The notes beneath the pieces are model-generated. The model worked only from the letters and a program-made list of their open reading frames with translations. It was not told the DNA's origin and did no database searches. A stretch of DNA of 64,000 bases from a phage. Location of the stretch: NCBI GenBank assembly GCA_024674815.1, contig GCA_024674815.1_4104.1; one strand, given 5' to 3'. Positions within the stretch are counted from its first letter, which is position 1, and every line of letters begins with the position of its first letter. This document shows, one piece after another, positions 2,452-16,495 of the stretch. Made by a program: the position numbers and the translations under genes.

Positions 2452-2478
2452 TTATTGTTATCCTCTATTAAATTAATA

Positions 2479-2673
2479 TTACAGTTTATGAATCAATTCT
2501 TTATCTAAGCGATAGCGTACATTATTAATAGTAACGGCATTGTTTTTAATGCTACGCTGTACAGGTCCACCAGCAATAACAAATGTTGCTTTATTACCCC
2601 GAACAATGATAGCACTTCCAGGATTACCGAAATCATCTTGTACTAAAATACTTGATAAGTTTTCCATTTTCAT
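2479..2673 (-). CDS. hypothetical protein (64 aa)
   Basis: ATG ORF; cassette upstream. Confidence 0.5.
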   Translation of the reverse strand: MKMENLSSILVQDDFGNPGSAIIVRGNKATFVIAGGPVQRSIKNNAVTINNVRYRLDKELIHKL

Positions 2674-2685
2674 TTCCTCTTAGTA

Positions 2686-2742
2686 GGGGAAGATGTTTCC
2701 CCTTGATGTAAGTACTATAACACTACTGAAAACTAAATGCAA
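2686..2742 (-). promoter_or_regulatory. PeSL-like cassette
   Basis: TTGCAT-16-TTATAG, hairpin GGGGAAACAUCUUCCCC. Confidence 0.5.
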
Positions 2743-2745
2743 GTA

Positions 2746-3102
2746 CTATGATAAAATCATGATAGGATATTCACTATCGATCAGTACCTCGAATCCGAAA
2801 CCTTCGTACCATTCTTTAAGATTAAAGGCGTTATCTTCTCCCGTATCGCATTCTAAAATGATACAATCTGAATCATCGGCGGCATCAATAAAGGCATTCA
2901 TTAATTCGTTACCTTCACCATTGCCCCGACTATCAGGATCAACATAAAGAGAATCAATAAACGCTACACGGTCATAATCAAGATCCGGTGCAATGATTCC
3001 ACGTTTCACAAACCAGTACTGCAATTGTGCTACTTTGCCCTGTACTTGATAGCCAGTGATCTCGCCATTGTCAGTAGTACGCGTGATATGTTGTATTCCC
3101 AT
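2746..3102 (-). CDS. GNAT-like acetyltransferase fold protein (118 aa)
   Basis: motif VDPDSRGNGEGNELM resembles GNAT motif A. Confidence 0.45.
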   Translation of the reverse strand: MGIQHITRTTDNGEITGYQVQGKVAQLQYWFVKRGIIAPDLDYDRVAFIDSLYVDPDSRGNGEGNELMNAFIDAADDSDCIILECDTGEDNAFNLKEWYEGFGFEVLIDSEYPIMILS

Positions 3103-3131
3103 GATTACTATCCTCAGTTAAGATATAAAAC

Positions 3132-3159
3132 ATTATACACTATCTTTCAGTACTGTCAA
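3132..3159 (-). promoter_or_regulatory. sigma70-type promoter
   Basis: TTGACA-16-TATAAT. Confidence 0.5.
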
Positions 3160-3165
3160 TACTTT

Positions 3166-3423
3166 TTATCTCATAGATCTATGCCAACAATTACGCGGAT
3201 CTCTTTTAAAAGTACTATCATGATCCTCCTGGCAAGTAATACAATACATGCACCCTATAACGGCCTGGCGTCGATTCTCAGGGATTTTATCGCCGCAGTC
3301 GAGGCAATGTACTAGTGATTCTCTTTGTGCGTTAATTTGCTTTCTAGCGTGGTTAACGGCTGCCTGAATCACTGCATGAATCTCGTCTTGTTCGGCCCCG
3401 TCTTTCGCGTATCCTACTGCCAT
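3166..3423 (-). CDS. TraR/DksA-family C4 zinc-finger protein (85 aa)
   Basis: CLDCG...x17...CMYCITCQ (CxxC-x17-CxxC). Confidence 0.6.
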   Translation of the reverse strand: MAVGYAKDGAEQDEIHAVIQAAVNHARKQINAQRESLVHCLDCGDKIPENRRQAVIGCMYCITCQEDHDSTFKRDPRNCWHRSMR

Positions 3424-3584
3424 TATTTTAACCTCATTATAAAAATACTATAGTACTGTAATGCTACAATAATACTACTAGTGCTAATCTTATTCAAACC
3501 ATATGATACTACATATCCACCAGCATTACCACGGATAGTAACTCCTTTGTACTGTCTATATAAATTCAACTGCGTATATTGCCT

Positions 3585-3657
3585 TTGATCAAGAATTGAT
3601 CAGAATTATACGCCTTATGCTAAATTGATCCAGTACTTTTTTGATCATTTATTGATC
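3585..3657. repeat. cluster of five TTGATC motifs (GATC-rich tract)
   Basis: 5 copies of TTGATC in 73 bp in an ORF-free leader. Confidence 0.5.
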
Positions 3658-3719
3658 GATATTATATAGTTACATTTGTGCACCCTATGGGTTAGTGACG
3701 TTCTCGTCTTGATGTAAGT

Positions 3720-3748
3720 ATTATGCCAGTACTGGATAATATTGTCAA
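3720..3748 (-). promoter_or_regulatory. sigma70-type promoter followed by conserved leader motif
   Basis: TTGACA-17-CATAAT; motif CACTAACCCAUAGGGUGC ~25 nt downstream. Confidence 0.5.
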
Positions 3749-3752
3749 TAGA

Positions 3753-3950
3753 TTATTTTAATTTTTTTCTGTCATTGATTAATGCTTTCAGTACTATACT
3801 AATAACTTGCAATGATTCATCAATGACAATGAAATTATTCTCTTTCATTAGATGATAGTTACCATTGATTGTATATTCTAACGAGTACTGTTTACGTTTA
3901 ATTTTTGATAATGTTTCTATTTGTTTTTGTACTGATTTCATGCTAATCAT
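3753..3950 (-). CDS. hypothetical protein (65 aa)
   Basis: track start is TTG; first ATG at 3950 used. Confidence 0.45.
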   Translation of the reverse strand: MISMKSVQKQIETLSKIKRKQYSLEYTINGNYHLMKENNFIVIDESLQVISIVLKALINDRKKLK

Positions 3951-4055
3951 TGTCAAACGTCCTGTAACGCATTCTAACGAGATAAACGGTTTAGTACTGG
4001 CATTGTATAGGGTAAATGATTAAAGCCCACCAGCGTTGACCAGTGGGCTATAATC

Positions 4056-4199
4056 TTACATCTTGCGGATAATCTTAACAGTATCTTTCACCGATTTACC
4101 GTCTTGCTGACATTGCTCGATCATCGCGTATTGTTCTGCGGTCAGATCCTCGCCAGTTTTTGCCAGTACTGCGTCGATGAATGAATCCAGTGCGATCAT
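4056..4199 (-). CDS. small hypothetical protein (47 aa)
   Basis: hand-translated ATG ORF; TTGACA-17-TATAAT promoter upstream. Confidence 0.35.
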   Translation of the reverse strand: MIALDSFIDAVLAKTGEDLTAEQYAMIEQCQQDGKSVKDTVKIIRKM

Positions 4200-4289
4200 T
4201 TTATTTCTCTCTTAGGTTAAGTTAACTACTGTTTATAAAACTTATTATACAGTACTATCAAACTATGTCAATAGTACTGGTAATATATT

Positions 4290-4469
4290 TTAGCGGTAGT
4301 CGTCGTATGCTTTATTCACCTGGCGAATATAACTTTCAAAGGCTTCGTCTACCGTTTCATACTCCCGAACATAATCACCATATGAAACTACATACATACC
4401 TTTTTGATCTTCAAACGTCATGATGATAGAATCCAGACCAACGATTTCAGTTTTTGCGATGATAGCCAT
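4290..4469 (-). CDS. small hypothetical protein (59 aa)
   Basis: hand-translated ATG ORF with upstream promoter. Confidence 0.4.
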   Translation of the reverse strand: MAIIAKTEIVGLDSIIMTFEDQKGMYVVSYGDYVREYETVDEAFESYIRQVNKAYDDYR

Positions 4470-4551
4470 TTTTAATTCCTTAATAGTGTAGTTGATAAAA
4501 GTTATTATGTCAGTACTATCAAACTATGTCAATAGTACTGTGATAATATTT

Positions 4552-4764
4552 TTAGTTAATGATAGTCAGTGTAAAATTGTAATCACCGCAGCGATATAGC
4601 ACGTTATTCCCAAATGTTCCAACTAATCGCACATCACACAAAACGCCGGTTTTTTCTTTTACTTCCTTGATACTTGTAACTCCTGTAATATCTTTATTAA
4701 AGTATTCATGATCTGAAAATAAAACTTGTTTTGCATTTTTTAATTTCGACCGGATATTAGCCAT
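4552..4764 (-). CDS. hypothetical protein (70 aa)
   Basis: ATG ORF; cassette upstream. Confidence 0.5.
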   Translation of the reverse strand: MANIRSKLKNAKQVLFSDHEYFNKDITGVTSIKEVKEKTGVLCDVRLVGTFGNNVLYRCGDYNFTLTIIN

Positions 4765-4784
4765 TTTGTTTTCTCTCTGTTAGT

Positions 4785-4844
4785 GGGGAGAATCATTTCT
4801 CCCCTTGATGTAAACTATTATACAGTACTATAATCTATTGTCAA
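4785..4844 (-). promoter_or_regulatory. PeSL-like cassette
   Basis: TTGACA-16-TATAAT; hairpin GGGGAGAAAUGAUUCUCCCC. Confidence 0.6.
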
Positions 4845-4859
4845 ACTATTTTTTTAATA

Positions 4860-5201
4860 TTATTCAAAATCTTCCGGTACTGACTGATAATCATCTTCAC
4901 CGTATGCACTTTCTAACCGCTCGCCAGTGTGATCATCAGTTAGTGAGTCATCCTCATAGTTCACGTCTACGCCAGTGATGTAAAACTGGCTATCGTCTGG
5001 ATCATTGAAATTAATTTTCTGTATGTTTACAATAACTGTATTGATACCCAGGACACTGCCATCAGCCGTTACAAAGTACTGATATTTTTCACAACCGCCT
5101 GAATTGAAACCGTAATTAATTTCGGCCCGACCATCATTTAAACGCAGTGCCTGGGCGATGATTTCATTTTCAAAGTTAGATTGAGCAATTGAGATAGTCA
5201 T
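4860..5201 (-). CDS. acidic hypothetical protein (113 aa)
   Basis: ATG ORF, D/E-rich. Confidence 0.55.
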   Translation of the reverse strand: MTISIAQSNFENEIIAQALRLNDGRAEINYGFNSGGCEKYQYFVTADGSVLGINTVIVNIQKINFNDPDDSQFYITGVDVNYEDDSLTDDHTGERLESAYGEDDYQSVPEDFE

Positions 5202-5221
5202 GATTTGTTTCCTTATTACCA

Positions 5222-5280
5222 GGGGAAACCGTTTCCCCTTTCGATGTAAAACATTATACGCTTATCAGGAAGTAATGCAA
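5222..5280 (-). promoter_or_regulatory. PeSL-like cassette
   Basis: TTGCAT-15-TATAAT; hairpin GGGGAAACGGUUUCCCC. Confidence 0.55.
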
Positions 5281-5283
5281 GTA

Positions 5284-5751
5284 CTATTTCACGTTAATTT
5301 CAAAGTACTGCTCTTTGATGTTTTCCTGTTGGTAAATCTCGTTTAATGCTTTAAGATCTAAAACCTGTTTACCTGCTGCCTGAATATACTTTTTAAGAGT
5401 CGCTAACAGCTTCTCAGGCGTGTTTGTAGTCTTACGTGTTGGGATCTTATCGTGCCCCATAGCGTAGTACTGCTTACGTGCTATAGTACTGATAACACTG
5501 CGGTACGGTTCCATGATCAGCTTGTCTGTGTATTCGTCGCTATCCCCAAACTTCATACCGTGGATCGCAAAGGTCATCATCATGCGGTCGTTATCGCGGA
5601 TATTGTGGGGGCAGTCGGCAAGCTCGCGAGTCAGTGACATAGTGATCCCCACGTCGCCACCCAGCGGTAAAGGTCGGGCGATAAAGAAACCGTTAGGGAA
5701 TACTTTCAGGAAGTTTTCTTGAACTGCTGCGACGAATTCGATGCTATTCAT
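5284..5751 (-). CDS. hypothetical protein (155 aa)
   Basis: ATG ORF. Confidence 0.6.
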   Translation of the reverse strand: MNSIEFVAAVQENFLKVFPNGFFIARPLPLGGDVGITMSLTRELADCPHNIRDNDRMMMTFAIHGMKFGDSDEYTDKLIMEPYRSVISTIARKQYYAMGHDKIPTRKTTNTPEKLLATLKKYIQAAGKQVLDLKALNEIYQQENIKEQYFEINVK

Positions 5752-5771
5752 AATTCATTTCCTTAATTAGT

Positions 5772-5831
5772 GGGGGAAGTTGTTTCCCCTCTCGATGTAA
5801 AACATTATACGCTTATTGAGATAGTTTGCAA
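5772..5831 (-). promoter_or_regulatory. PeSL-like cassette
   Basis: TTGCAA-16-TATAAT; hairpin. Confidence 0.55.
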
Positions 5832-5944
5832 GTACTTTCTACAAATACTTTTAAAATAGTTTTCAGTACTCAAACATTATACAATAGATACACTCCTGCA
5901 CCCTGTGGGCTAGTGAGCTATCTCTCAATGAATATATAATAGCA

Positions 5945-5975
5945 AACTGGCTGACCGAAGTCAACCACTTTTTCA
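5945..5975 (-). terminator. terminator hairpin with UUCG loop, TTGACT -35 embedded
   Basis: GGUUGAC-UUCG-GUCAGCC in minus transcript; TATTAT 17 nt downstream. Confidence 0.5.
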
Positions 5976-6110
5976 TTTATTTTTAGCTTTTAGAATCGCC
6001 GCCTTTCGCGTCATGCCTTGCTTGATGTACTCCTTTACTTTCGCTTTTTTAGCGTTTACCTTGTCTGCTTTCGTTTTAGGAGTACTGTAAATTATACCGT
6101 TAGGATTCAT
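5973..6110 (-). CDS. small basic protein (45 aa)
   Basis: hand-translated ATG ORF, Lys-rich. Confidence 0.3.
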   Translation of the reverse strand: MNPNGIIYSTPKTKADKVNAKKAKVKEYIKQGMTRKAAILKAKNK

Positions 6111-6196
6111 TTAAATCACCATAAAGAATAGATAGGTTACTAACAACGCCGCGATCAATGCACCGACCAGGGCCGAACTATAGTAAGCTAATGATT

Positions 6197-6349
6197 TCAT
6201 TTTTTAGCCTGAAAGTAATGTTTAATTTGAGCGGCGGTCAGTGCACAATTACGCAGGAAGTTTTCTGTATAACTTTTGCGAGTACTGAAAGAGAATTGAC
6301 CTTTGCCGTTACCGATAGTAACATCAAACCGAGCGTTGTATTGTTTCAT
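6197..6349 (-). CDS. small hypothetical protein (50 aa)
   Basis: ATG with AGGAGA SD; track start is an AUG inside the leader hairpin. Confidence 0.4.
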   Translation of the reverse strand: MKQYNARFDVTIGNGKGQFSFSTRKSYTENFLRNCALTAAQIKHYFQAKK

Positions 6350-6367
6350 TTTGATTCTCCTGTTATT

Positions 6368-6427
6368 GGGGAGAATCATTTCTCCCCTTCATGTAAACTA
6401 TTATACAGTACTAAAAACTAATTGCAA
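6368..6427 (-). promoter_or_regulatory. PeSL-like cassette
   Basis: TTGCAA-16-TATAAT; hairpin. Confidence 0.55.
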
Positions 6428-6430
6428 GTA

Positions 6431-6577
6431 TTATTTTTTAGATTTACGTAAACTTTCTACCATCTCAGGAGTAAGCCCCAGCGGGTAGGAAACCACTTCA
6501 TCCACAAAACGCAAAGGGAATACCCCATCTAAAGTTGAACGTGCTTTCTTATTAGTACTCTTTTTTGATGCTTTCAT
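6431..6577 (-). CDS. small hypothetical protein (48 aa)
   Basis: hand-translated ATG ORF; cassette upstream. Confidence 0.4.
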   Translation of the reverse strand: MKASKKSTNKKARSTLDGVFPLRFVDEVVSYPLGLTPEMVESLRKSKK

Positions 6578-6646
6578 TTCATATTCCTTAATTAGTGGGG
6601 AGAACTATTTCTCCACTTCATGTAAACTATTATACAGTACTAAAAA

Positions 6647-6856
6647 CTAATTGCAAGTATTATTTTCTAAAAAATGTTTGTATGCTGAATCAACAACTCT
6701 TTCGATAACATACGCTAACGGCACGTATCCAACTACATGACTACAATAAAAAGGACTACGATTAGAATCATCGTATGCAAATACTTTTTCAGGATCTGCA
6801 TCAATCACATACATATTAACCTTTAAGATGTCGATCTTATCCTGTACAGTAAGCAT
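6647..6856 (-). CDS. hypothetical protein (69 aa)
   Basis: ATG ORF. Confidence 0.5.
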   Translation of the reverse strand: MLTVQDKIDILKVNMYVIDADPEKVFAYDDSNRSPFYCSHVVGYVPLAYVIERVVDSAYKHFLENNTCN

Positions 6857-6861
6857 ATTAA

Positions 6862-7134
6862 TTAACCTTTTAAGTACTGGCTTAAGTAGTCTTTTTGATC
6901 TTCGGTGATTGCAGTCATCTTCCCTAGTACTGGATTAATGATATAATCCCCTGTAACGTCCAGTACAGCATTCTCAGGCTGTTTAACGGCAGGGGTAGCC
7001 ATAGCCATCGCCTGGACTTGTTCGACGCTGTAACGCTCATAAAGGCGGCATTCTTCCGGTGTTAACATAGCATCAATACGTTTCATTGGTTTAATGATGC
7101 TTTCAACTTCATTTAGTACTTGATTAACGTTCAT
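6862..7134 (-). CDS. hypothetical protein (90 aa)
   Basis: ATG ORF. Confidence 0.55.
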   Translation of the reverse strand: MNVNQVLNEVESIIKPMKRIDAMLTPEECRLYERYSVEQVQAMAMATPAVKQPENAVLDVTGDYIINPVLGKMTAITEDQKDYLSQYLKG

Positions 7135-7185
7135 GGTATAATCCCCAATATAAGCGGCCTAAATCGACCACTAACGATGATTTGA

Positions 7186-7455
7186 TCAATAGGTGTATGG
7201 TTGACGCTCAAACAATGATTGCACGTTGTACGCCCCGCTAATGGGCTTAGCTGGCAAATCAATTTTATATTGTTCACGCTTAAAGATAATAAAACGGCAA
7301 TTGTTTTTAACATCAAAATTGATTGAACGTTCCAGGAGTTTACCATCGTGCACAAATACAAGATAACCGCTTGCTACTTGTTTTGTAGTACTGGTTGCAA
7401 CCATAGACCGCCGAACATGTGTACCTGCATCGATTAAAGTACTGATATTTTTCAT
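7186..7455 (-). CDS. hypothetical protein (89 aa)
   Basis: ATG ORF; TTGACA-17-CATAAT promoter at ~7487-7515. Confidence 0.5.
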   Translation of the reverse strand: MKNISTLIDAGTHVRRSMVATSTTKQVASGYLVFVHDGKLLERSINFDVKNNCRFIIFKREQYKIDLPAKPISGAYNVQSLFERQPYTY

Positions 7456-7534
7456 TTTAGTTTCCTTAGTTGTCTTGATAAAATCTATTATGCCAGTACT
7501 ATCAAACTATGTCAATAGTACTGTGATAATATTT

Positions 7535-7678
7535 TTACTTACTTTTTGCTTTCTTGATTGCTTCCACCTGGTCGGCCCATTCTTTACCCCATACTTGTAA
7601 ATTATAATGGTACTGGCAAAGAGCAACGCCCCGCTTTAAACCCGTAATAGATTTCTGACCACATTGACAAGTTTTCAT
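7535..7678 (-). CDS. small Cys-rich protein (47 aa)
   Basis: hand-translated; C-x-C ... C-x2-H pattern. Confidence 0.4.
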   Translation of the reverse strand: MKTCQCGQKSITGLKRGVALCQYHYNLQVWGKEWADQVEAIKKAKSK

Positions 7679-7695
7679 ATTAGTTTCCTTGTAGT

Positions 7696-7756
7696 GGGGA
7701 GAACCATTTTCTCCCCTTGATGTAATGTATTATACTTTATTCGATTTACTTTGCAA
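7696..7756 (-). promoter_or_regulatory. PeSL-like cassette
   Basis: TTGCAA-16-TATAAT; hairpin GGGGAGAAAAUGGUUCUCCCC. Confidence 0.55.
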
Positions 7757-7765
7757 GTACTTTTT

Positions 7766-7993
7766 TTAATTTAATTCATCAAGGCAAAGGATACGCTCAA
7801 CGCCCAAATCAGTTAAACTAATCGACGGCACTTGATAGGTTTCAATGTATGCTACACTTGCCCACTGACCGAACTCATTAACGGCCCAGGTATTCATTGC
7901 ATTTTGCAATTCCGCACCTTCCTTGTTGGTAATGACTGCAACTACTTGTTCGTTGCCAGTAGTACCAGATACGCGAGTAATGATAATAGCCAT
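7766..7993 (-). CDS. hypothetical protein (75 aa)
   Basis: internal ATG downstream of cassette hairpin. Confidence 0.5.
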   Translation of the reverse strand: MAIIITRVSGTTGNEQVVAVITNKEGAELQNAMNTWAVNEFGQWASVAYIETYQVPSISLTDLGVERILCLDELN

Positions 7994-8230
7994 TGTTTTG
8001 ATTCCTTTGATTTGGAAGGAGAACCGTTTCCCCCTCTCGATGTAAAACATTATACGCTAATCTCTTAATCGTGCAAGTACTTTTTATTACTTTTTGCAAA
8101 ATACTTTAAACGCTCTCAATCGCGTTCTTACAGCCTTAACGCCACCAGCTAGGGCAATGCATCAGATAATCAGTTTAATGCGTTAGAATCGTTTCTAGGC
8201 GGTGCTGGTGGCATGGTAAACTATAAACAC

Positions 8231-8256
8231 AAAAAAGCCCACCGTTTAAGGTGGGC
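8231..8256 (-). terminator. intrinsic terminator
   Basis: GCCCACC-uuaaac-GGUGGGC then U6 in minus transcript. Confidence 0.6.
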
Positions 8257-8278
8257 TAGTGATTCAATACTTTAATTG

Positions 8279-8761
8279 TTATGCTTCAACTTTGCGATGA
8301 GCTTCGATCCATTCCTCGCGAGTCATACCGCTTTCTTTGATAGCGTCCAGTACTACCGCAATGCAGTTACCGCGTACAGGAATCAAATGTTCTTCACCGT
8401 TATCAAGTACTACAGTAACACGTTCTTGAATCCATTTTTTAGGTTTAGATTCCGGCTTATCTTCACCGTACTTAACCGCCAGGGCTTTATGTGCCATTTC
8501 AACAACCACTTCCAGATCCAATCCAGACACCGCCGCCTGGATACTTTCAATTGTTGCTTGCAGTTCGGCTTCACGGGCTTTTTTCTGTTCTTCCAGTTCT
8601 GCTACCTTTTTGGCTTGTAATTCTTTCGCTTCACTGTAAGCAATGTTAAAATTGTTGCGTACAGCTTTCATGGTATCGTTATCCAGGTCAGCCAGCAATT
8701 CAGCAGCAATAACAGTATCGTTTGAAATCAGTGCTTTCAGGAATGATTTTACATTAGCCAT
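8279..8761 (-). CDS. hypothetical coiled-coil protein (160 aa)
   Basis: ATG with GAGGA SD; track start is TTG. Confidence 0.6.
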   Translation of the reverse strand: MANVKSFLKALISNDTVIAAELLADLDNDTMKAVRNNFNIAYSEAKELQAKKVAELEEQKKAREAELQATIESIQAAVSGLDLEVVVEMAHKALAVKYGEDKPESKPKKWIQERVTVVLDNGEEHLIPVRGNCIAVVLDAIKESGMTREEWIEAHRKVEA

Positions 8762-8956
8762 TTTATAAATCCTCAATTAAAGTTTAGTTTACGTTTATTA
8801 GTGTATCAAAGTTTTATCGACGTGTCCAGTTTTTCGTTCGACTTACTGGCGGTCTACTTAGTGCTCCCCGTCTTGATGTAATACATTCTACGCCTTTTTG
8901 TGGTAATGTCAACTACTTTTTTAAAACTATTTTTAAAGTATGCAGTACTACAAAAC

Positions 8957-8982
8957 AAAAAAGCCCACTGTTTAAGGTGGGC
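8957..8982 (-). terminator. intrinsic terminator (copy of 8231-8256)
   Basis: same hairpin + U-run. Confidence 0.6.
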
Positions 8983-9000
8983 TAGTGATTCAGTACTATA

Positions 9001-9300
9001 TTATAAACAGTTAATTACTCCGGTGTGCGTTACTTTCTCAGTATCCATAACCGTGACCGATCCACGCTTAGTACTTGCATCATAATAAATTGTTGTGCTA
9101 CCGTTTTCGTCTTCTTCATGGAACGGCCCGTTTTTAAATGCTTCTGGCTGGATCTCTAAATCCTTTAAAACAATCTCGCCTGTACTTTCATTGGTCATCG
9201 CTACCGTGCACTGAATGAATTTTTCACTACTTACATCTAACGACGCATTAACAGCGAAAGAGGAAACAGATAAAGCCAGGGCGATGATTGCAATTTTCAT
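9001..9300 (-). CDS. secreted/periplasmic small protein (99 aa)
   Basis: N-terminal signal-peptide-like MKIAIIALALSVSSFA. Confidence 0.6.
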   Translation of the reverse strand: MKIAIIALALSVSSFAVNASLDVSSEKFIQCTVAMTNESTGEIVLKDLEIQPEAFKNGPFHEEDENGSTTIYYDASTKRGSVTVMDTEKVTHTGVINCL

Positions 9301-9320
9301 TTGATTATCCTTAGTTACCA

Positions 9321-9379
9321 GGGGAAACCGTTTCCCCTTGCGATGTAAAATATTATACAGTACTAAAAACTAATTGCAA
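9321..9379 (-). promoter_or_regulatory. PeSL-like cassette
   Basis: TTGCAA-16-TATAAT; hairpin. Confidence 0.55.
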
Positions 9380-9384
9380 GTACT

Positions 9385-9621
9385 TTATGATTTTTTATAA
9401 AACATTTCGGCAGTGATATTTTTACCCGTTGGTTGTACTTTATCCAGAATTTTTTGATGCCCTGGCCGTCCAAATGAATATGATCCGTAAACCGTAAACC
9501 AGTAGTTACCCTCAGTGTTTACATGTACAGCACAATAGGGAACGCCCCGCGATTCATCACCAATAAAGTGTGATACCGTTCCCGTTACATTAGCAGACGT
9601 TGATTTGATTTGTTCAAGCAT
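9385..9621 (-). CDS. hypothetical protein (78 aa)
   Basis: ATG ORF; cassette 9643-9694. Confidence 0.5.
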   Translation of the reverse strand: MLEQIKSTSANVTGTVSHFIGDESRGVPYCAVHVNTEGNYWFTVYGSYSFGRPGHQKILDKVQPTGKNITAEMFYKKS

Positions 9622-9728
9622 TTTCTTATTCCTTAGTTACCAGGGGAACCGCTCCCCTATGCAAAACATTATACGCGTTTAAAAACTATTAGCAAGTATT
9701 TTAATAAAAAGTATTTGAAAAATAGTTG

Positions 9729-9757
9729 TTGACAAGTGCATCCAGTACTGGCATAAT
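9729..9757 (+). promoter_or_regulatory. plus-strand sigma70-type promoter
   Basis: TTGACA-17-CATAAT on plus strand, no ORF downstream. Confidence 0.5.
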
Positions 9758-9763
9758 TACTAC

Positions 9764-9868
9764 ATCAAGACGAAACAGTCACTAACCCACCGGGTGCCGA
9801 GATCCGTCTATTAAATGATTCAGTACTGAAAAAGTAACGGGGAGTTATTATCTCCCCGCGTTGTTATT
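9764..9868 (+). ncRNA. candidate ~100-nt small RNA
   Basis: promoter 9729-9757, conserved CACUAACCCACCGGGUGC motif, hairpin+U-run terminator 9838-9870. Confidence 0.3.
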
Positions 9869-10085
9869 TGGTAAGGTATAAACAGAAGTCACCTTTATTT
9901 GCTACGCCGCCAGTGTAACGCGATGAATAGTTAGAAATATCTTGTACTTCTGCTATTACCAGTGTATCATCATTCATTTCGTCGCAGAAGCAAACGGCTG
10001 GATCTTTTACGCCGATATTGTCTGCATGTTCCCGCATAGATTTAACCAGTGCTTCCAGTTGAGAAAGAGTAGTGATATTAGCCAT
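9864..10085 (-). CDS. hypothetical protein (73 aa)
   Basis: ATG with GAGGA SD; cassette 10105-10163. Confidence 0.5.
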   Translation of the reverse strand: MANITTLSQLEALVKSMREHADNIGVKDPAVCFCDEMNDDTLVIAEVQDISNYSSRYTGGVANKGDFCLYLTK

Positions 10086-10169
10086 TTTATTTTCCTCATT
10101 ACCAGGGAGAACCATTTCTCCCCTTGATGTAAACTATTATACAGTACTAAAAACTAATTGCAAGTACTT

Positions 10170-10358
10170 TTAATTAAATTCCATAAAATCATTTTCAACG
10201 TGCACAACAATCTGATTATTTTTAAAGGACGCAGAAAACTCTATACAATCATAAACCGCTTTTTCTGTTACCAGACTATGAGCACCAATCGGATTAATTG
10301 GGGATTGAATTGTTTCAATCTCGTTACCTTGTTCATTAACGATTAAAATATTAAACAT
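10170..10358 (-). CDS. hypothetical protein (62 aa)
   Basis: ATG ORF. Confidence 0.45.
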   Translation of the reverse strand: MFNILIVNEQGNEIETIQSPINPIGAHSLVTEKAVYDCIEFSASFKNNQIVVHVENDFMEFN

Positions 10359-10397
10359 TGCCGTTACTCCTGGATAGTGTTAACTCGATATAAAGTA

Positions 10398-10580
10398 TTA
10401 TACGCCTTTATTGCTTAGTGTCCAGTGATCACGCATCATACGCCCCGCACGATCCCAGCTAGTAGGCATGGGTATGCCTTGCAATTCGTTAGGGGAGATC
10501 TCGACCTCGATCCCTACATCAATAACAGTCATTCCAGCTTTCGCAGCTTGCTCGCGGATAACCTCAGATAATGTTGTCAT
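10398..10580 (-). CDS. hypothetical protein (60 aa)
   Basis: ATG ORF. Confidence 0.45.
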   Translation of the reverse strand: MTTLSEVIREQAAKAGMTVIDVGIEVEISPNELQGIPMPTSWDRAGRMMRDHWTLSNKGV

Positions 10581-10654
10581 GATTAAAGCTCCTGGATAGT
10601 GTTAACTCGATATAAAGTATTATACAGTACTGAAAACTAATTGCAAGTACTTTT

Positions 10655-10915
10655 TCAATATTGTTTGTCGTTGTCTTCCTCGATGAATTGACCGACGAAA
10701 TGATCTACTTTCGCTTTGAGGCTTTTATAATCTTCTTCTACTTCCTTTAAACGTTCCTGGTAGTATTCCAGGGCTTGAATATACGCCGCCTCAGCAGTTT
10801 TTGCACGCATAGCTAAATTCATTCCACGCGTTTCATCAAATAGCCAATAACCATCGGTGCAATGACTGATAGATAATGATTTACTTAGTACTGTATAGGC
10901 AATTACTTTACTCAT
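10655..10915 (-). CDS. hypothetical protein (86 aa)
   Basis: ATG ORF. Confidence 0.5.
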   Translation of the reverse strand: MSKVIAYTVLSKSLSISHCTDGYWLFDETRGMNLAMRAKTAEAAYIQALEYYQERLKEVEEDYKSLKAKVDHFVGQFIEEDNDKQY

Positions 10916-10972
10916 TAGATAACCCTCAGTAAAGGCGGGAACTATTACCCGCCATTATCTCAGTACTGAATA

Positions 10973-11212
10973 TTACATTCCAACCATTGCAGCACGGATC
11001 GCAGTAGTGCTATACTTAAAGCCGTCCGGCGTTGTAGTAGTACCGTTGGCTTTTAATCTGCGGTACATACATTCCGCAGCAATATCTTTAGTTCTACTTT
11101 GTGCGATGCAACTTTGAGCAAGCCGATACAATGACTCACCGTTATTAATCCAAAGGCTTACATTCCAATGAGTTTTGTTTTTGTGTCCGTTGTAAGTTTT
11201 AGTACTAGCCAT
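10973..11212 (-). CDS. hypothetical protein, paralog A of 13014-13253 (79 aa)
   Basis: shared GHKNKTHWNVSLWINN and TPDGFKYSTTAIRAAMVGM termini. Confidence 0.55.
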   Translation of the reverse strand: MASTKTYNGHKNKTHWNVSLWINNGESLYRLAQSCIAQSRTKDIAAECMYRRLKANGTTTTPDGFKYSTTAIRAAMVGM

Positions 11213-11230
11213 TTTTAAATCCTCGTTTGA

Positions 11231-11290
11231 GCGGGGAACCACTCCCCGCCTCGATATAAAGTATTATACGCTTTTAAACTTAGTTTGCAA
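11231..11290 (-). promoter_or_regulatory. PeSL-like cassette
   Basis: TTGCAA-16-TATAAT; hairpin GCGGGGAGUGGUUCCCCGC. Confidence 0.55.
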
Positions 11291-11302
11291 GTACTTTTTA
11301 AA

Positions 11303-11914
11303 TTAATATTCGATTGATTCCACTACTCCATCAATAACATTGAATTGATATTCGTTACCCTCAATCAGTGCTGTAATGTTTTCAGTAGTGAATTGATCCT
11401 CATATGCATTCTCTAAATCACGGTACAACTTGCGGGATAATTCACGAATAGTTTCAGTGAGTAGTTCCTCAAGCTCATTAACTAACGTTTCTTGTTTTGC
11501 GGTTAAATCAGTGTAAGCCGATTCAATGTACCCGCTTACAGTATTCTCATGCGAGTAGTGGGAGTGCGAACGCTTTACACTCATCGCCAAATCATCTTCA
11601 TTCAGCAAGTGACGGATTGAGCGATACTTAGTTAATGCTCTTACCTTGCGTAAAAACTTCACTGCGTCAACGTGGTCAGTACTGATTGATGCACCGTCAC
11701 CCTGGGACCAAAAGCCACTGAATCGTAAATCAGCGTCAGTAATGCCATATTCCGGTAGTACTGTTTCTTTATAGTATTCAATTTCACTTTCAGAAAAATA
11801 ATCATCGTTTAAGTTTTTTTCACGTTCCCGAACCAGTTCGATAGCTGACGTTTGTTGTTCTGCGTTCAATTCAGAAAAAGCCATAACATAAGTAGTAGTA
11901 GTGATAGTTTTCAT
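11303..11914 (-). CDS. acidic hypothetical protein (203 aa)
   Basis: ATG ORF, D/E-rich. Confidence 0.6.
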   Translation of the reverse strand: MKTITTTTYVMAFSELNAEQQTSAIELVREREKNLNDDYFSESEIEYYKETVLPEYGITDADLRFSGFWSQGDGASISTDHVDAVKFLRKVRALTKYRSIRHLLNEDDLAMSVKRSHSHYSHENTVSGYIESAYTDLTAKQETLVNELEELLTETIRELSRKLYRDLENAYEDQFTTENITALIEGNEYQFNVIDGVVESIEY

Positions 11915-11984
11915 TTTGTAACCCTCATTCAGTAGTTGATGTAAGTATTATACGCTTTTAAAAACAATTGTCAAACTATTTTAT

Positions 11985-12060
11985 CAGGGGAGTTTTTCGT
12001 GTGCCTTACTCCTGGGCTACTTAATGGGGAGTTACTTATTTCGTTCCCCGTCCTGATGTA
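11985..12060 (-). other. conserved structured leader element (copy 3)
   Basis: near-identical to 1163-1234. Confidence 0.4.
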
Positions 12061-12139
12061 AAACATTATACGCCTTTAAACATAGTTTGCAAGTACTTTT
12101 TAAAAATAGTTTTCTGTACTGAATAGTAAAAAAAAAGTA

Positions 12140-12168
12140 TTGACAGCATTATCAAGTACTGGCATAAT
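12140..12168 (+). promoter_or_regulatory. plus-strand sigma70-type promoter
   Basis: TTGACA-17-CATAAT; conserved motif downstream. Confidence 0.5.
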
Positions 12169-12283
12169 ATACCCCATGACAACAGCTAACCCACCGGGTG
12201 CACAATTGTAACTGTAATAAACTACTTTTTCTATAGATACACTCCCGCACCCTATGGGCTACGGCTTATCTGCCAATGAATAC

Positions 12284-12312
12284 ATTATGCCAGTACTGAC
12301 AAAATAAGTCAA
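12284..12312 (-). promoter_or_regulatory. minus-strand promoter convergent with 12140-12168
   Basis: TTGACT-17-CATAAT; conserved motif downstream. Confidence 0.5.
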
Positions 12313-12342
12313 TACCGGCAATTGTAAAGATTTGTAAACTGC

Positions 12343-12573
12343 TTATACTGCAATCGCGTCCAGGCTGTAATAATAATAAGTGCCGTATTGGTGTACTTTA
12401 TTACCTTTTATTTCAGTACTGAATGAATCCGAACGGTTTGCATATGATGTTAATTTAAAGTACTTTGATTTGCTGATACGTTGCCATACACCACAGATCC
12501 GCTGTAAGTAAGTAGTTTTATTCGTGGTAGTATCTTTTACGGTTTTAACTTCAGTCATATACATATTAGTCAT
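12343..12573 (-). CDS. hypothetical protein (76 aa)
   Basis: ATG ORF; cassette 12595-12653. Confidence 0.5.
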   Translation of the reverse strand: MTNMYMTEVKTVKDTTTNKTTYLQRICGVWQRISKSKYFKLTSYANRSDSFSTEIKGNKVHQYGTYYYYSLDAIAV

Positions 12574-12660
12574 TTTTATTACTCCAGGTTATAGGCGGGA
12601 AGAGTTCCCGCTCTCGATGTAAAACATTATACGCCTTTAAACATAGTTTGCAAGTACTTT

Positions 12661-12927
12661 TTATTCAAGTACTGCAATCTTTTTAGTACGGTACACGGTC
12701 ACGCGGTTGCCCTTTCGGTCGAGCTTTATTTCTACCACTCGACGCGATACACTATCGGGACTTTTTAAGGCCGCTAACCAGTACTGTAATGATCTGGCGG
12801 TACTACGCTTTACAATGGCCCAACGTTTACCACGTTCCGATTGTACGCCCATATCTTTAAACGTTGCCCCGTCCTGGCGAGCGGCGATCCGAGCTTGTTC
12901 ACGCGTCGCAAAATACTTAATATTCAT
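12661..12927 (-). CDS. basic hypothetical protein (88 aa)
   Basis: internal ATG; track start is GTG in promoter. Confidence 0.45.
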   Translation of the reverse strand: MNIKYFATREQARIAARQDGATFKDMGVQSERGKRWAIVKRSTARSLQYWLAALKSPDSVSRRVVEIKLDRKGNRVTVYRTKKIAVLE

Positions 12928-13013
12928 GCTGTTGCCCTTATCGTTGGTGTATGAATAAAACACTATTATAAAGTACTATCGCAAAAAAATGATAGTACTT
13001 TAAATAAATTCTA

Positions 13014-13253
13014 TTACATTCCAACCATCGCCGCACGGATCGCAGTAGTGCTATATTTGAATCCGTCCGGTGTTTTATCTTGTCCAGTCTGTTCTAAAAA
13101 TAACATCATATGACGGGCCGCATCATTGCGATTAGTGCTATCGTTAATAAAGTCCTGGGCCAACCGGTATAATGATTCATCGTTATTAATCCAAAGGCTT
13201 ACATTCCAATGAGTTTTGTTTTTGTGACCTAAGAACATTTTTGATTTAGCCAT
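13014..13253 (-). CDS. hypothetical protein, paralog B of 10973-11212 (79 aa)
   Basis: conserved termini, variable middle; cassette 13273-13330. Confidence 0.55.
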   Translation of the reverse strand: MAKSKMFLGHKNKTHWNVSLWINNDESLYRLAQDFINDSTNRNDAARHMMLFLEQTGQDKTPDGFKYSTTAIRAAMVGM

Positions 13254-13345
13254 TTTTTAATCCTCTTATATAGTGGGGAACTATTCCCCACCTGATGTAA
13301 AACATTATACGCTTTTAAACTTAGTTTGCAAGTACTTTATTAAAC

Positions 13346-13708
13346 TTATTTGTAAATTTTGCCACTGTCAGCCCATACCAGGAAACGAGGCATATTATCC
13401 CATGCATCTTGTTTTAAGTTTAAGCCGTGCAATTCCTCAGTTGTTGCCATCCCTGGTACTGGCTTACTACACACCGCGAAATTTTCGCCCATGTACTGAT
13501 AAACCATCGTTAAATCATTTGAGATCATTACATGGATCATTGAATCAAGCATCAAAGTAGCGGCGTATTGTTCACGCTTAAGCGGCAACATTGCAATAAG
13601 TTCCCGATAAGCTGCAATGTGAATTTTTACAGTTTCAGCCGGAAGACCTTTCATCTCATCGCGGAAGTTTACCAGGTTAAGCATGATTTTATTGATTTGA
13701 GTCGCCAT
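13346..13708 (-). CDS. hypothetical protein (120 aa)
   Basis: internal ATG after cassette hairpin 13733-13749. Confidence 0.55.
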   Translation of the reverse strand: MATQINKIMLNLVNFRDEMKGLPAETVKIHIAAYRELIAMLPLKREQYAATLMLDSMIHVMISNDLTMVYQYMGENFAVCSKPVPGMATTEELHGLNLKQDAWDNMPRFLVWADSGKIYK

Positions 13709-13823
13709 CGTTTTAATCTCTCTTAATGTGTAGCGGGAAGTGTTCCCGCTCTCGATGTAAAACATTATACGCTTTTATCAGTACGGTGCAAGTACTTTCT
13801 ACAAATACTTTTAAAATAGTTTT

Positions 13824-13919
13824 CTTTCTATATAGGAGTACTATTATTCAGTACTGAATCAATCCAGGGGAACTATCTTTCTATATAGGAGTACTATTAT
13901 TCAGTACTGAATCAATCCA
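13824..13919. repeat. 2 x 43-bp direct repeat
   Basis: unit TCTTTCTATATAGGAGTACTATTATTCAGTACTGAATCAATCCA twice, 53-bp period. Confidence 0.6.
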
Positions 13920-14071
13920 CCAAATCACTACTACACCCCATAAAACGGCCTCAGACGCATTCTAACGCATTAATACACATAAGCTATACATTTGCACCAT
14001 TCCAATCATTCCAGGGCTTTACAGGCCGTTTAAACGCGTTAAATTATTTTCAATTATTTTGTTTTTAGGTA

Positions 14072-14099
14072 TTGACTTGATCCTGAAAAAGCGTATAAT
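14072..14099 (+). promoter_or_regulatory. plus-strand sigma70-type promoter
   Basis: TTGACT-16-TATAAT. Confidence 0.5.
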
Positions 14100-14103
14100 T
14101 ACT

Positions 14104-14165
14104 ACATAGACGCGAGAAAGCGGAAACCCCAGAGGGTGCGGAATTACGCCCAAAATTCAAGATAT
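14104..14165 (+). ncRNA. candidate small RNA A
   Basis: own promoter; shares GAGAAAG..GGGUGC..UUACGCCCAAAAUUCA with 14318-14380. Confidence 0.3.
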
Positions 14166-14287
14166 AAAAAAAGGATACACTCCCGCACCCTAGCAGGTAA
14201 ACGCACTTTCTCAGTACTGAAATATAGTACCATAGTCCGGCCCAGGATAGCAAGCAAATTAATTAAAACTTTTTTGCTTCCAGGGTA

Positions 14288-14315
14288 TTGCTTTATTTTT
14301 TCAGTACTGTATAAT
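14288..14315 (+). promoter_or_regulatory. plus-strand promoter
   Basis: TTGCTT-16-TATAAT. Confidence 0.45.
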
Positions 14316-14317
14316 AG

Positions 14318-14380
14318 TTCCATCAAGTCGAGAAAGACTCAAGCCCACCGGGTGCATAGTTACGCCCAAAATTCAGTACT
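14318..14380 (+). ncRNA. candidate small RNA B (paralog of A)
   Basis: conserved sequence blocks with 14104-14165. Confidence 0.3.
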
Positions 14381-14534
14381 GAAAAATTTTTAAAAATATC
14401 CGGCCAGGTCGTTGACATTGCCCCCAGTTTATAAGATAATGATTCCAGATTCAGAAAAATCTAACTACAGATACTGCGGGGAAACTATCCCCACGCGGTA
14501 GGGGAACTATTGGAAAAACAAAATAAAATTTTGA

Positions 14535-14680
14535 TTTAGCCGTCTATACTTCCAGACGTGTAACCATCTAGCCGTTTAGCCGTCTAGCCATCCAGCCATC
14601 CAGAAATCTAGCCGTTTAGCCGTCTAGATGGATAGCCATCTTTACTTCCAGACTTCTGGAGGGCTAGACATATCTACGTC
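14535..14680. repeat. iteron-like short direct/inverted repeat array
   Basis: repeated TAGCCGTCT/AGCCATCC units, palindrome CCATCTAGATGG, CTTCCAGAC x2. Confidence 0.5.
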
Positions 14681-15708
14681 CAAAATCCATCCAGGGTAAC
14701 TACACCCAAAATCCGTCAGTACTATACCATAGATCTATCTTTTGAAAGGGAGTATTCAGTACTGCCATCATAGCCCTCACTATGTTACCCTAGGAGGATG
14801 AAGACTATCATGTAGTACTGAATACTGTTAGAGGGAATCCACCAGCTTGTGCTGGTGGCATAATGCTTTAGATTAAAATCAGTACTGACACCATTCTGTT
14901 AATATCAGTACTGTTATTACAATTTTCATATGAGGTTCAAAAAGATGTACCACCACAGGAGGAACTATCTTTTCTGTACTGTCTCACGACAGGAGGTAGA
15001 GTAAATGAATTGTTCGCAGCAACTCATCTCTCTATGTAGAACATTATACAGTACTGAATCATAATGTCAATAACTTTCTTTCACCATTCAGTACTGATAT
15101 TCTTGAGAACTACCCGTCTACAAACATCATTATATCCCACAAATCATAAACGTCCCAACGTAAATTTCAACTTTCGAAGATCCAACTTTTATTTCATAGG
15201 TACTCCAAAATTTTTAGGATCGAGATTTAGGATGGAGTACTAACCAACTTTTTGCTGGAGCCTCAAGGGGTAATTGAATTTTACCCCGAAGGGTAAAAGG
15301 GTAATTGTAATTAAGGTGAAAGTAATAATTCAGTACTAATCATTGCGTGATTACTTTTGATTACATTTGATGTAATTTGCAAAATGGAAAAGGAGCTTGG
15401 AAACTACAAAGTACGGCAGACTTCCTCTGCCTACTTAGTGGCATATCAGTACTGAATCATTCACACACATTTCCGTGCATTCTTGAGCAATCTTGTCTAT
15501 ACTAATCAGTACTGAATCATATATAATCATTCTGTGATTCTACGGTGCTCATATAAATGTTTATATATGATTACTTATGACTACCTATGATTACGGGGTT
15601 TAGCCTGGGGAGAATCCTAGTGATCGCATTTGTCCAGGCTGAATTTTAACAATTCGCCTGTACATAAAGGTTGTTCACTAGGAGCTTCCCCTGTCTCTAT
15701 GTGTTTAA

Positions 15709-15900
15709 TTACTTTCTATATATAAGCATTAAGATATAGTAGTACTGATTATACTGTACATTCTCTTTAATATTATAAGGGTCTATAGCAATCTCGGTAC
15801 ATCTGTTAAATGCATATCTATTAAATGCCAGTGGAATTATAGATCTAATCCATACTTGTTCATTTTCTTTTAGTTTACTTATATAGAAGTTTTTATACAT
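15709..15900 (-). CDS. small tandem-paralog family protein S1 (63 aa)
   Basis: family: N-term M-x-(K/E)-(E/H)-(F/Y)-Y, hydrophobic C-term; tightly packed array. Confidence 0.55.
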   Translation of the reverse strand: MYKNFYISKLKENEQVWIRSIIPLAFNRYAFNRCTEIAIDPYNIKENVQYNQYYYILMLIYRK

Positions 15901-15915
15901 AGTATTCTCTATTAA

Positions 15916-16098
15916 TTAATATGATAGTACTAGTGTTAGTACTGAGCACAATTGTTCTTTATAGTTCTTATGGTATATAGAATCTTTTATGCACTCATTG
16001 AAGTGCCATAGGTATAATCTTGGGTCGCATTCTTTATATATTCTTACGGGGACGAATGTTAGTTTTCGTATATAGAATTCTTTATGTTCTTTATTCAT
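15916..16098 (-). CDS. small tandem-paralog family protein S2 (60 aa)
   Basis: MNKEHKEFY...; family member. Confidence 0.55.
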   Translation of the reverse strand: MNKEHKEFYIRKLTFVPVRIYKECDPRLYLWHFNECIKDSIYHKNYKEQLCSVLTLVLSY

Positions 16099-16099
16099 A

Positions 16100-16288
16100 T
16101 TAGTACCTGAATATAAGTAGGATTATGTTATAGTACTGGTTAGTACTGCAATGATTCTCTATACATCGATTAACAGTTATGGAATAGCTATATCTGGCGT
16201 AAGCATTATCCAGGGGGATTTTACATTGAGCACTTAGAGAAAGTACAGTAGGTAGTGTATTCAAATAGAAGTCTTTGTAATTATTCAT
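16100..16288 (-). CDS. small tandem-paralog family protein S3 (62 aa)
   Basis: ends ...LLIFRY; 1-nt spacing to S2. Confidence 0.55.
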   Translation of the reverse strand: MNNYKDFYLNTLPTVLSLSAQCKIPLDNAYARYSYSITVNRCIENHCSTNQYYNIILLIFRY

Positions 16289-16490
16289 ACAGGAATAGTA
16301 TACCTATGATGCCGGAGTACAGGTTAGTACTGTTACCATCTTCATTTGCGTTTAAAGTCATTTGAATACAATTATTGTAGCATACTCTGCCGAAAAATGT
16401 ATTAGTACTTAAAGGTGGAGTAGTCCTTAGAAACATTTGTTCTGAGGGGCTTATGTATTTGGAGTAGAATTCTTTATGTTCTTTATTCAT
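16281..16490 (-). CDS. small tandem-paralog family protein S4 (69 aa)
   Basis: MNKEHKEFY...; overlaps S3 start by 8 nt. Confidence 0.55.
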   Translation of the reverse strand: MNKEHKEFYSKYISPSEQMFLRTTPPLSTNTFFGRVCYNNCIQMTLNANEDGNSTNLYSGIIGILFLYE

Positions 16491-16495
16491 ATTAG

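Follow-up and report, generated by a model that had tools for sequence, protein, structure and literature searches.

A gene-free stretch in an Escherichia jumbo phage

We have analyzed positions 13709-15708 of a 64,000-nucleotide stretch of phage DNA (contig GCA_024674815.1_4104.1 of NCBI GenBank assembly GCA_024674815.1), hereafter the window. The initial annotation, made from the sequence alone, had described here a centre free of open reading frames (ORFs) and dense in promoters, repeats and palindromes, and had proposed a replication origin or a packaging or regulatory site. All of the repeats listed there were confirmed, and they are non-random. Our comparisons indicate that the region is very probably the physical end of the packaged genome together with an untranslated leader. 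The leader occupies 13709-15435 at the genome end and is followed by a unique flank of ~270 bp (15436-15708).

The window comes from an Asteriusvirus, a Rak2-like jumbo myovirus of E. coli (the 121Q/PBECO4/G17 group) with genomes of ~350 kb. The 1.9-kb query gave full-length matches, at 94–98% identity, to about 35 Escherichia and Salmonella Asteriusvirus genomes (including PBECO4, 121Q, G17, JP4 and fEgEco12). A nucleus-forming Goslar-like Chimallivirus with its own RNA polymerases was also considered as the source and dropped, the matches being to Asteriusvirus of the Rak2-like group. Sharanji, nearly identical to G17, encodes a sigma factor that is thought to partner the host polymerase.

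In all relatives small minus-strand genes flank the stretch, which is a gap between them. The annotations of G17, A4 and 121Q have no coding sequence in it, G17 marking one putative terminator only; the records of most other relatives are also without any feature there, and automatic annotations insert "hypothetical proteins" of 30–70 amino acids (aa). The claim that no credible ORF exists held up, the longest candidates being broken in relatives: the longest ORF (85 aa, GTG start, 14136-14393) is hit by a 1-nt indel in four of the five close relatives, and a 59-aa ORF with an ATG start (15064-15243) has a frameshift and stops in phages A4 and 121Q. With the candidates disrupted in this way, coding potential for the region was rejected. 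The left edge of the gene-free region is probably 13709 rather than 13790, because the neighbouring gene, g01, most likely starts at 13708. A 363-nt version of g01 is annotated in JP4, vB_Ec-M-J, BF17, A4 and 121Q; a longer 139-aa version (start 13765) would overlap a TATAAT hexamer. Within the genus, conservation of the leader is at least as high as that of the start of the adjacent gene. We found no tRNA or tmRNA (ARAGORN) and no gathering-score match to Rfam 15 in the window, where 13600-15800 gave only chance-level matches (E ≥ 0.7).

The probable end of the packaged genome

In a sensitive search, parts of the region matched the first kb of other jumbo-phage GenBank records with mapped ends, and in Asteriusvirus records of 366–384 kb the region is located ~21 kb from one end. 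The terminal copies of G17 are 20,668 bp long and 100% identical, and the final base of the G17 record aligns with window position 15435. The duplication at the other end of G17 stops exactly at the position matching 15435, beyond which the DNA is not duplicated. The records of fEgEco12, vB_Ec-M-J and BF17 start at the same base, on the minus strand, with 5'-AGTAGGCAGAGGAAGTCTGCC. The end shared by these four records, between 15435 and 15436, corresponds to experimentally determined virion ends (PMC13070987, PMC11895373): for fEgEco12, PhageTerm gave the termini and restriction digests confirmed them, with a repeat of 20,993 bp, the G17 repeat was detected from doubled read coverage, and the PhageTerm repeat of Sharanji has 20,668 bp, the same length as that of G17. 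Because the record ends of G17, fEgEco12, vB_Ec-M-J and BF17 coincide with 15435, we assign window 1-15435, by homology, to the inner part of one copy of a direct terminal repeat (DTR) of ~21 kb, with unique DNA from 15436 onward. The closest record beginning at the 15435 base is BAU.Micro_ELP-22, 98.3% identical over the region.

The features surrounding the cut are the following (here and below, unstranded means that no strand applies).

15267-15371, unstranded: on the inner side of the cut, a GGGGTAA/TTACCCC hairpin together with repeats of GGGTAA and of the 10-bp TGATTACWTT (repeat searches)
15409-15441, unstranded: terminal palindrome AAGTACGGCAGA-cttcc-TCTGCCTACTT, with the virion end between 15435 and 15436 (four record ends; fold z = -3.96)
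15442-15708, unstranded: unique-side flank with two copies of CAGTACTGAATCA (15447, 15507), TGATTAC repeats (15558-15594) and an invariant block (15580-15619), extending to the stop codon of the first unique gene

The TGATTAC and GGGTAA reiterations noticed in the initial annotation are real, and those of TGATTAC lie on both sides of the genome end. The cut lies at the foot of the palindrome, directly before TAGTGG, which remains on the excluded side; the palindrome is imperfect, with 11 bp (15409-15436), and the cut falls in its last base pair. Munch and Kae01 have a perfect 8-bp palindrome at the same place. A4 and 121Q keep a core of ~45 bp of the cut site, with divergence on both sides of it. 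The boundary sequences are given below from the interior of the repeat outward, with a slash at the cut.

Boundary in the window, Asteriusvirus: ...GCCTACT/TAGTGGCATATCAGTACTG
Same boundary, CBB: ...ACGGATA/TAGCGGAAGGGG
Same boundary, fENko-Kae01: ...GAAGATA/TAGCGGAAGGGG
Other boundary, G17 and fEgEco12: ...GTAACCT/TAGCGACTTC
Other boundary, CBB: ...TAACGCT/TAGCGAGGCA
Other boundary, Kae01: ...CATGCCT/TAGCCACCCG

An outward-facing N/TAGYG flanks both DTR ends in three genera (Asteriusvirus, CBB and fENko-Kae01), and the homologous junction is found inside the permuted records of GAP32, Kaldavass, RaK2 and phiKp_21. The ends come from several laboratories, which used different methods, and all of them place the cut directly 5' of a TAGYG that faces outward, at both boundaries; we infer that N/TAGYG is what the terminase recognises.

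Conservation of the leader across genera

We have compared the leader with those of Munch, fENko-Kae01, the Yersinia Eneladusviruses, CBB, XbC2, BF, GAP32 and Kaldavass. Its blocks are collinear and found at similar distances from the end in at least five genera, in a comparison that includes phages (Munch, fENko-Kae01 and the Yersinia Eneladusviruses) with an average nucleotide identity (ANI) to fEgEco12 of ~23–29% according to the paper describing the latter. The initial annotation had made its reading depend on conservation of the repeats in related phages, and the main blocks are indeed conserved across genera.

14095-14171: unit A block, 84–96% identity, 1.0–1.07 kb from the end in the other phages
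14484-14656: 8-bp array block, 68–80% identity, 0.66–0.73 kb from the end in the other phages
15193-15260, unstranded: block C (GGTACTCCAAAATTTTTAGGATCGAGATTTAGGATGGAGTACT; the GGTACTCCAAAATTT block), 82–93% identity, 0.05–0.13 kb from the end in the other phages, with matches in Munch, Kae01, XbC2, Kaldavass and GAP32 that are always near their ends

Within the genus, block C is 97–99% conserved.

Promoters of the leader and of the repeat

The two plus-strand promoters, each followed by a paralogous unit, that had been described here are present (P1 and P2 below), and others accompany them.

14072-14099, plus strand: P1, TTGACT-16-TATAAT, 11/12 matches to the sigma-70 consensus, reading toward the genome end into unit A
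14288-14315, plus strand: P2, TTGCTT-16-TATAAT, upstream of unit B (read by eye)
14412-14440, plus strand: P3, TTGACA-17-GATAAT, 11/12
14412-14525, plus strand: P3, a hairpin and, ahead of the 8-bp array, the conserved motif CGCGGTAGGGGAACTATTGGAAAAA (fold z = -2.6)
15070-15043, minus strand: perfect sigma-70 promoter (12/12), TTGACA-16-TATAAT, reading inward, absent from the initial annotation
14880-14913, minus strand: terminator-like hairpin formed by two CAGTACTG palindromes, ~150 nt downstream of the inward promoter

Promoter-like hexamers are found at the position of P1 in eight other phages. The P3 block matches Munch and RaK2, and its motif CGCGGTAGGGGAACTATTGGAAAAA is visible in CBB, XbC2, BF, GAP32 and Kaldavass. 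The perfect inward promoter, located 365 bp from the end, is kept in A4, 121Q, G17 and JP4. Near-consensus sigma-70 sites are ~8-fold enriched over the window, 38 against 4.8 expected from shuffles, and 15 of the 38 are on the minus strand inside the repeat, the one at 15070-15043 being the outermost; there are none between 15.4 and 38 kb. By analogy with the early module transcribed by the host polymerase that has been reported for CBB and PA5oct, this cluster fits a module of the same type. Along the window as a whole, promoters of the type TTGACA-16/17-TATAAT crowd the terminal repeat (1-15070) and cease abruptly at the boundary when compared with 15436-38000.

Units A and B and the small RNA alternative

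The units that follow P1 and P2 are ~78% identical over 46 nt (manual count). Their elements are the following.

14100-14222, unstranded: unit A, conserved inverted-repeat module (covariance-model match of 103.7 bits; fold z = -3.1)
14111-14122: small hairpin of unit A, CGC-GAGAAA-GCG
14133-14141 and 14183-14191: long arms of unit A, AGGGTGCGG and CCGCACCCT
14191-14165, minus strand: terminator-like hairpin with a run of seven T in unit A
14224-14253, minus strand: weak promoter TTGCTA-18-TACTAT facing unit A (read by eye)
14288-14380, plus strand: P2 and unit B, a truncated paralogue of unit A with the hairpin and the 5' arm but without the 3' arm (repeat families D8, D9 and D12)

In CBB the homologue of the facing promoter is TTGACA-18-TACTAT (10/12), and its context is conserved in CBB, GAP32, XbC2 and Kaldavass. 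We read unit A as a module that would be convergently transcribed from the two facing promoters. Across phages each copy has a sigma-70-type promoter, a small hairpin (loop GAGAAA or GCGAAA) and a long inverted repeat, CCCAnnGGGTGCGG ... CCGCACCCnnTGGG, that encloses a variable loop of 40–80 nt. The covariance model found one to three copies in every Rak2-like locus examined and gave no significant full-length match to unit B. A pattern scan of IMG/VR for unit A returned 55 loci, and when 52 of them were rescanned with the model only four jumbo contigs of ~355–366 kb scored; this rescan set aside CBB and GAP32, and the remaining 48 pattern matches were due to chance. In the alignment of unit A 78% of the cells are paired, against 67% in shuffles, and the covariation score of 0.351 exceeds those of shuffles (0.182) and of slid controls (~0.09). 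A kissing interaction between GAGAAA and TTTCTC loops was also considered and rejected, since the two are better explained as mirror halves of one palindromic module.

Further modules of the unit A type are present in intergenic gaps of the repeat: at 9729-9870 with an antisense promoter that ends at a two-way terminator, and at 12140-12312 with two near-consensus convergent promoters facing one inverted repeat. Fur-box-like sequences of the AATGAGAATCATTATCATT type occur within unit A homologues, in the loops of those from RaK2, Munch and BF, and also in direct repeat C of Repeat Region 3 of T5 (9470-9640), and there are none in the Asteriusvirus leader.

Units A and B could be convergently transcribed palindromic modules that yield short RNAs, two-way transcription stops, or both. 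The alternative that survives best goes further and takes small non-coding RNAs as the main products of the region: units A and B and the P3 transcript would form a trans-acting family (directed, e.g., at host transcripts or defence systems), and their location at the terminus would be incidental. We regard this as a tentative possibility, on balance doubtful. Near-consensus promoters are found directly upstream in every genus, the structure of unit A is conserved with compensatory changes, and over the first 52 nt there is 96% identity between Asteriusvirus and Munch, the genomes of which have ~29% ANI according to the fEgEco12 paper. One to three copies per genome, in Rak2-like phages only, and the precedent of abundant non-coding RNAs in the terminal repeat of PA5oct point in the same direction. 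But the units are without Rfam match, the helix can form equally well on either strand, A-C cells outnumbering G-U cells on the promoter one, and there is no clear terminator after the plus-strand unit. The loops are highly variable in both length and sequence, and the convergent promoters suggest a role in cis.

The 8-bp array, the AGTACT palindromes and the origin alternative

The array of short repeats mentioned in the initial annotation was confirmed, with a period of 8 bp.

14535-14680, unstranded: array of ~17 units of 8 bp, consensus TCTAGCCR/TCCAGCCA, 755–900 bp from the end

Tandem Repeats Finder gave a period of 8 and 11.4 copies at 14537-14627, with a degenerate continuation to ~14680. 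Among Asteriusviruses the array varies in copy number by indels of exactly 8 or 16 bp, and CBB, XbC2 and BF have it at a similar distance from the end. Nearly the same 8-bp unit is found in the T7-like phages PGT2 and KPV811, 40–140 bp from the end of the record, in eight T5-like Vibrio phages, within the first 0.05–0.86 kb of the record, and also in Aeromonas T5-like phages. This association of 8-bp arrays with ends across families is suggestive, several of the records being possibly permuted and the Vibrio phages being related to each other. None of the DnaA, Fur and IHF patterns explains the 8-bp unit, and none of note was found in the region. A broader idea is that arrays of the TAGCCRTC type are a terminus-proximal cis signal common to three unrelated groups with terminal repeats (Rak2-like jumbo myoviruses, T5-like Vibrio and Aeromonas siphoviruses, and T7-like podoviruses), through a common host factor or DNA structure used in ejection or packaging, and that the palindromes of unit A are an undescribed family, specific to Rak2-like phages and convergently transcribed; we consider this combination rather unlikely.

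The palindrome copies described in the initial annotation proved to be of two kinds, the longer forms being locally enriched and the AGTACT core not being specific to the region. The region holds three copies of the 12-mer TTCAGTACTGAA, eight of TCAGTACTGA, 12 of CAGTACTG and 19 of AGTACT. In this 3% of the window are located 8 of the 16 copies of TCAGTACTGA and 5 of the 6 of CAGTACTGAATCA. AGTACT itself has 267 copies in the window, where base composition predicts ~22 (~12-fold), with a density of 9.5 per kb in the region, ~11 per kb in other intergenic DNA and 3.4 per kb in genic DNA of the repeat. Given this window-wide enrichment, AGTACT was rejected as a hallmark of the region. Its flanks show a weak preference (C before, G after), and ~12 of the 267 copies are in the promoter context TTGACA-N8-CAGTACTGnYATAAT.

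A replication origin could take two forms here, a T4-style origin, where a transcript from a promoter would form an R-loop within the A+T-rich stretch of the loop of unit A or B and prime leading-strand synthesis, or an iteron origin on the 8-bp array, and either would be compatible with a terminus. We consider it improbable, i.e., possible but unsupported. Rak2-like phages carry a T4-like replisome, and DNA ends with nearby Chi sites could start recombination-dependent replication. Strong promoters are followed by A+T-rich stretches, but such features do not discriminate an R-loop origin. The one origin-like signal is in base composition: cumulative G-C reaches a local minimum at 15206, and the skew changes sign at 15.5–16 kb while gene direction is constant. 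It is ambiguous, because the boundary of the repeat and a gene array of unusual composition lie at the same place. As to iterons, the period of 8 bp is out of helical phase, compared with ~17–22 bp for phased iterons, and strains differ in copy number by whole units. Arrays of the same sequence near the record ends of unrelated T5-like and T7-like phages link them to termini and not to a shared initiator. There are no DnaA boxes (TTWTNCACA) in 13709-15708, compared with seven in the whole window, modules like unit A also occur elsewhere in the repeat (9729-9870 and 12140-12312), and no initiator gene is evident adjacent to the region, the neighbours being small genes annotated as hypothetical whose proteins were not searched individually.

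The odd gene array just mentioned (15709-20500) consists of ~25 minus-strand ORFs of ~60 aa that follow one another in tandem with tight packing. Its coding strand is rich in C and A (plus-strand GC skew of +0.2), of opposite sign to that of the minus-strand genes of the repeat, and it has no near-consensus sigma-70 promoter.

Chi sites near the end

14839-14858, unstranded: inverted pair of Chi octamers, CCACCAGC-ttgt-GCTGGTGG

The plus-strand member of the pair, GCTGGTGG at 14851-14858, is located 577 bp from the end, on the strand that ends 3' at the DNA end. Under the orientation rule that RecBCD follows for Chi, this copy would be correctly oriented for the enzyme entering at that end. 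The window holds 15 Chi sites against ~0.5 expected (~30-fold), co-oriented with transcription, and in the part that belongs to the repeat six of the eight copies are intergenic. In the G17 repeat (locus 1-20668) nine of the ten Chi sites face the far end, and one, in the inverted pair, faces the end at 15435. From these orientations and the RecBCD rule it follows that both DNA ends meet Chi within 0.6–1.4 kb. The pair is kept in G17, 121Q, JP4, Munch and Kae01.

Other repeats

13764-13791, minus strand: candidate promoter TTGCAC-16-TATAAT, read from the sequence and probably that of g01, the first gene of the terminal repeat
13823-13919, unstranded: 53-bp tandem duplication with two 44-nt cores (13823-13866 and 13876-13919), period 53 bp (repeat search, 100% identity)

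The two direct repeats previously placed at 13824-13919 are 44-nt copies that are 100% identical. G17 seems to have a single copy of the 53-bp unit (alignment break at 13855/13890), and the duplication is probably a recent product of slippage. Farther away, at 39074-39834, there is a tandem repeat with a 207-bp unit, 3.8 copies and 77% matches.

A probable packaging end and early-control leader

Our verdict is that the region is a packaging end and early-control leader, not a demonstrated origin, and that it is ordinary in kind. From the original proposal of a replication origin or a packaging or regulatory site, the packaging part was borne out by the virion end between 15435 and 15436 and the regulatory part by the terminus-proximal sigma-70 promoters, and we found no positive evidence for the origin. 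The elements described could work together as follows. The terminase would cut concatemers between 15435 and 15436, and with the mirrored N/TAGYG at the other boundary both ends would come from one recognition event used in mirror orientation. The TGATTAC, CAGTACTGAATCA and GGGTAA repeats and the 8-bp array, 0.75–0.9 kb inside, may be sites where proteins load for packaging or ejection. After injection, the host RNA polymerase would start at the perfect promoter 365 bp from the end and then at the 14 that follow, all inward. Since all these promoters read inward, this end would probably be the one that enters first, as in T7, although from promoter direction this is a guess. At the Chi site 0.58 kb inside, RecBCD would change from degrading DNA to loading RecA, so that the end would be protected and recombination between the repeat copies favoured. 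Units A and B would give short convergent transcripts or two-way transcription stops, which is the least certain step.

Several observations weigh against parts of this picture. In this particular phage the end is placed by homology. T5 has the opposite arrangement of promoters and entry. The Chi site is lost in A4 and absent from the leaders of CBB, BF and RaK2, so it is not essential. In unit A the strand count is 20 G-U against 39 A-C cells, which does not favour the promoter strand and points to neither strand as a folding RNA.

Features of this kind are known, and in relatives the position of the present one has already been annotated. As far as the accessible literature shows, the cut motif, the palindromic promoter modules, the arrangement of Chi and the cross-family array are undescribed. 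In phages with long terminal repeats (T5, SPO1, jumbo phages) the cutting of concatemers and the regeneration of a repeat of 10–20 kb at both ends are poorly understood, and a mirrored N/TAGYG next to a palindrome is a concrete target for terminase biochemistry and for the engineering of phages that are therapeutic candidates. Correct placement of the end also fixes the orientation of many arbitrarily permuted Asteriusvirus records. How ends are protected and how the DNA enters could be pursued at low cost from the conserved blocks of the leader, the Chi bias and the 8-bp array shared across families, all of which can be tested.

Comparison with known systems

The DTR boundaries of other Rak2-like phages (fEgEco12, G17, Sharanji, vB_Ec-M-J, CBB and fENko-Kae01) delimit repeats of ~20–22 kb, as here. 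Four Asteriusvirus records share the exact base position, and CBB, Kae01, XbC2, BF and Munch have a homologous one. The published accounts consulted on Rak2-like repeats give lengths and coordinates only, with no mention of the cut motif, the palindrome, the array or unit A.

Chi-rich phages that use or evade RecBCD are the subject of one paper on phage genomes in general (Bobay et al., 2013; PMC3784561) and of another on lambdoid phages (PMC12315714). As far as the accessible parts of these two papers go, the likeness is that the exact E. coli Chi octamer is strongly over-represented and oriented toward DNA ends, and the difference is that here a virulent jumbo phage concentrates Chi, often in intergenic positions, in its terminal repeat.

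The closest functional analogue is Repeat Region 3 of T5, the injection-stop region at the boundary of the left terminal repeat. Like the region described here, it is untranslated, dense in repeats and palindromes, straddles the boundary with an overrun of ~270 bp and is better conserved than the neighbouring genes. The differences are the lack here of DnaA-box pairs and of detected sequence similarity; besides, T5 genes read toward the end that enters first, the reverse of the polarity tentatively suggested here. That the leader is itself a stop signal of this type, with the terminal repeat as a first-step-transfer segment entering from the far end and transfer pausing at the leader, is very unlikely, and we know of no two-step injection in Rak2-like phages: the architecture is similar (1.2 kb in T5, untranslated and repeat-dense, at the repeat boundary and with the overrun into unique DNA), the T5 repeat genes are small and transcribed toward the far end, and relatives of the 8-bp array exist in T5-like Vibrio and Aeromonas phages, but the paired DnaA boxes that a preprint reports in all T5-like phages are absent here, the T5 sequence is without the shared array, and in the T5-like Vibrio phages the array is near the record start and not at the far repeat boundary.

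As a packaging end with an early-control leader, the region can also be compared with PA5oct, a relative whose terminal repeat is transcribed early and gives two abundant non-coding RNAs. The concatemer junction of T7 offers a further parallel. There the terminal repeat is flanked by arrays of short repeats, a hairpin intermediate is formed, and early promoters for the host polymerase are found at the leading end. The repeat of T7 has 160 bp, compared with 21 kb here, and its units, CCTAAAG, differ in sequence, but both systems have short-period arrays by the repeat end, a palindrome at the cut and host promoters that read inward.

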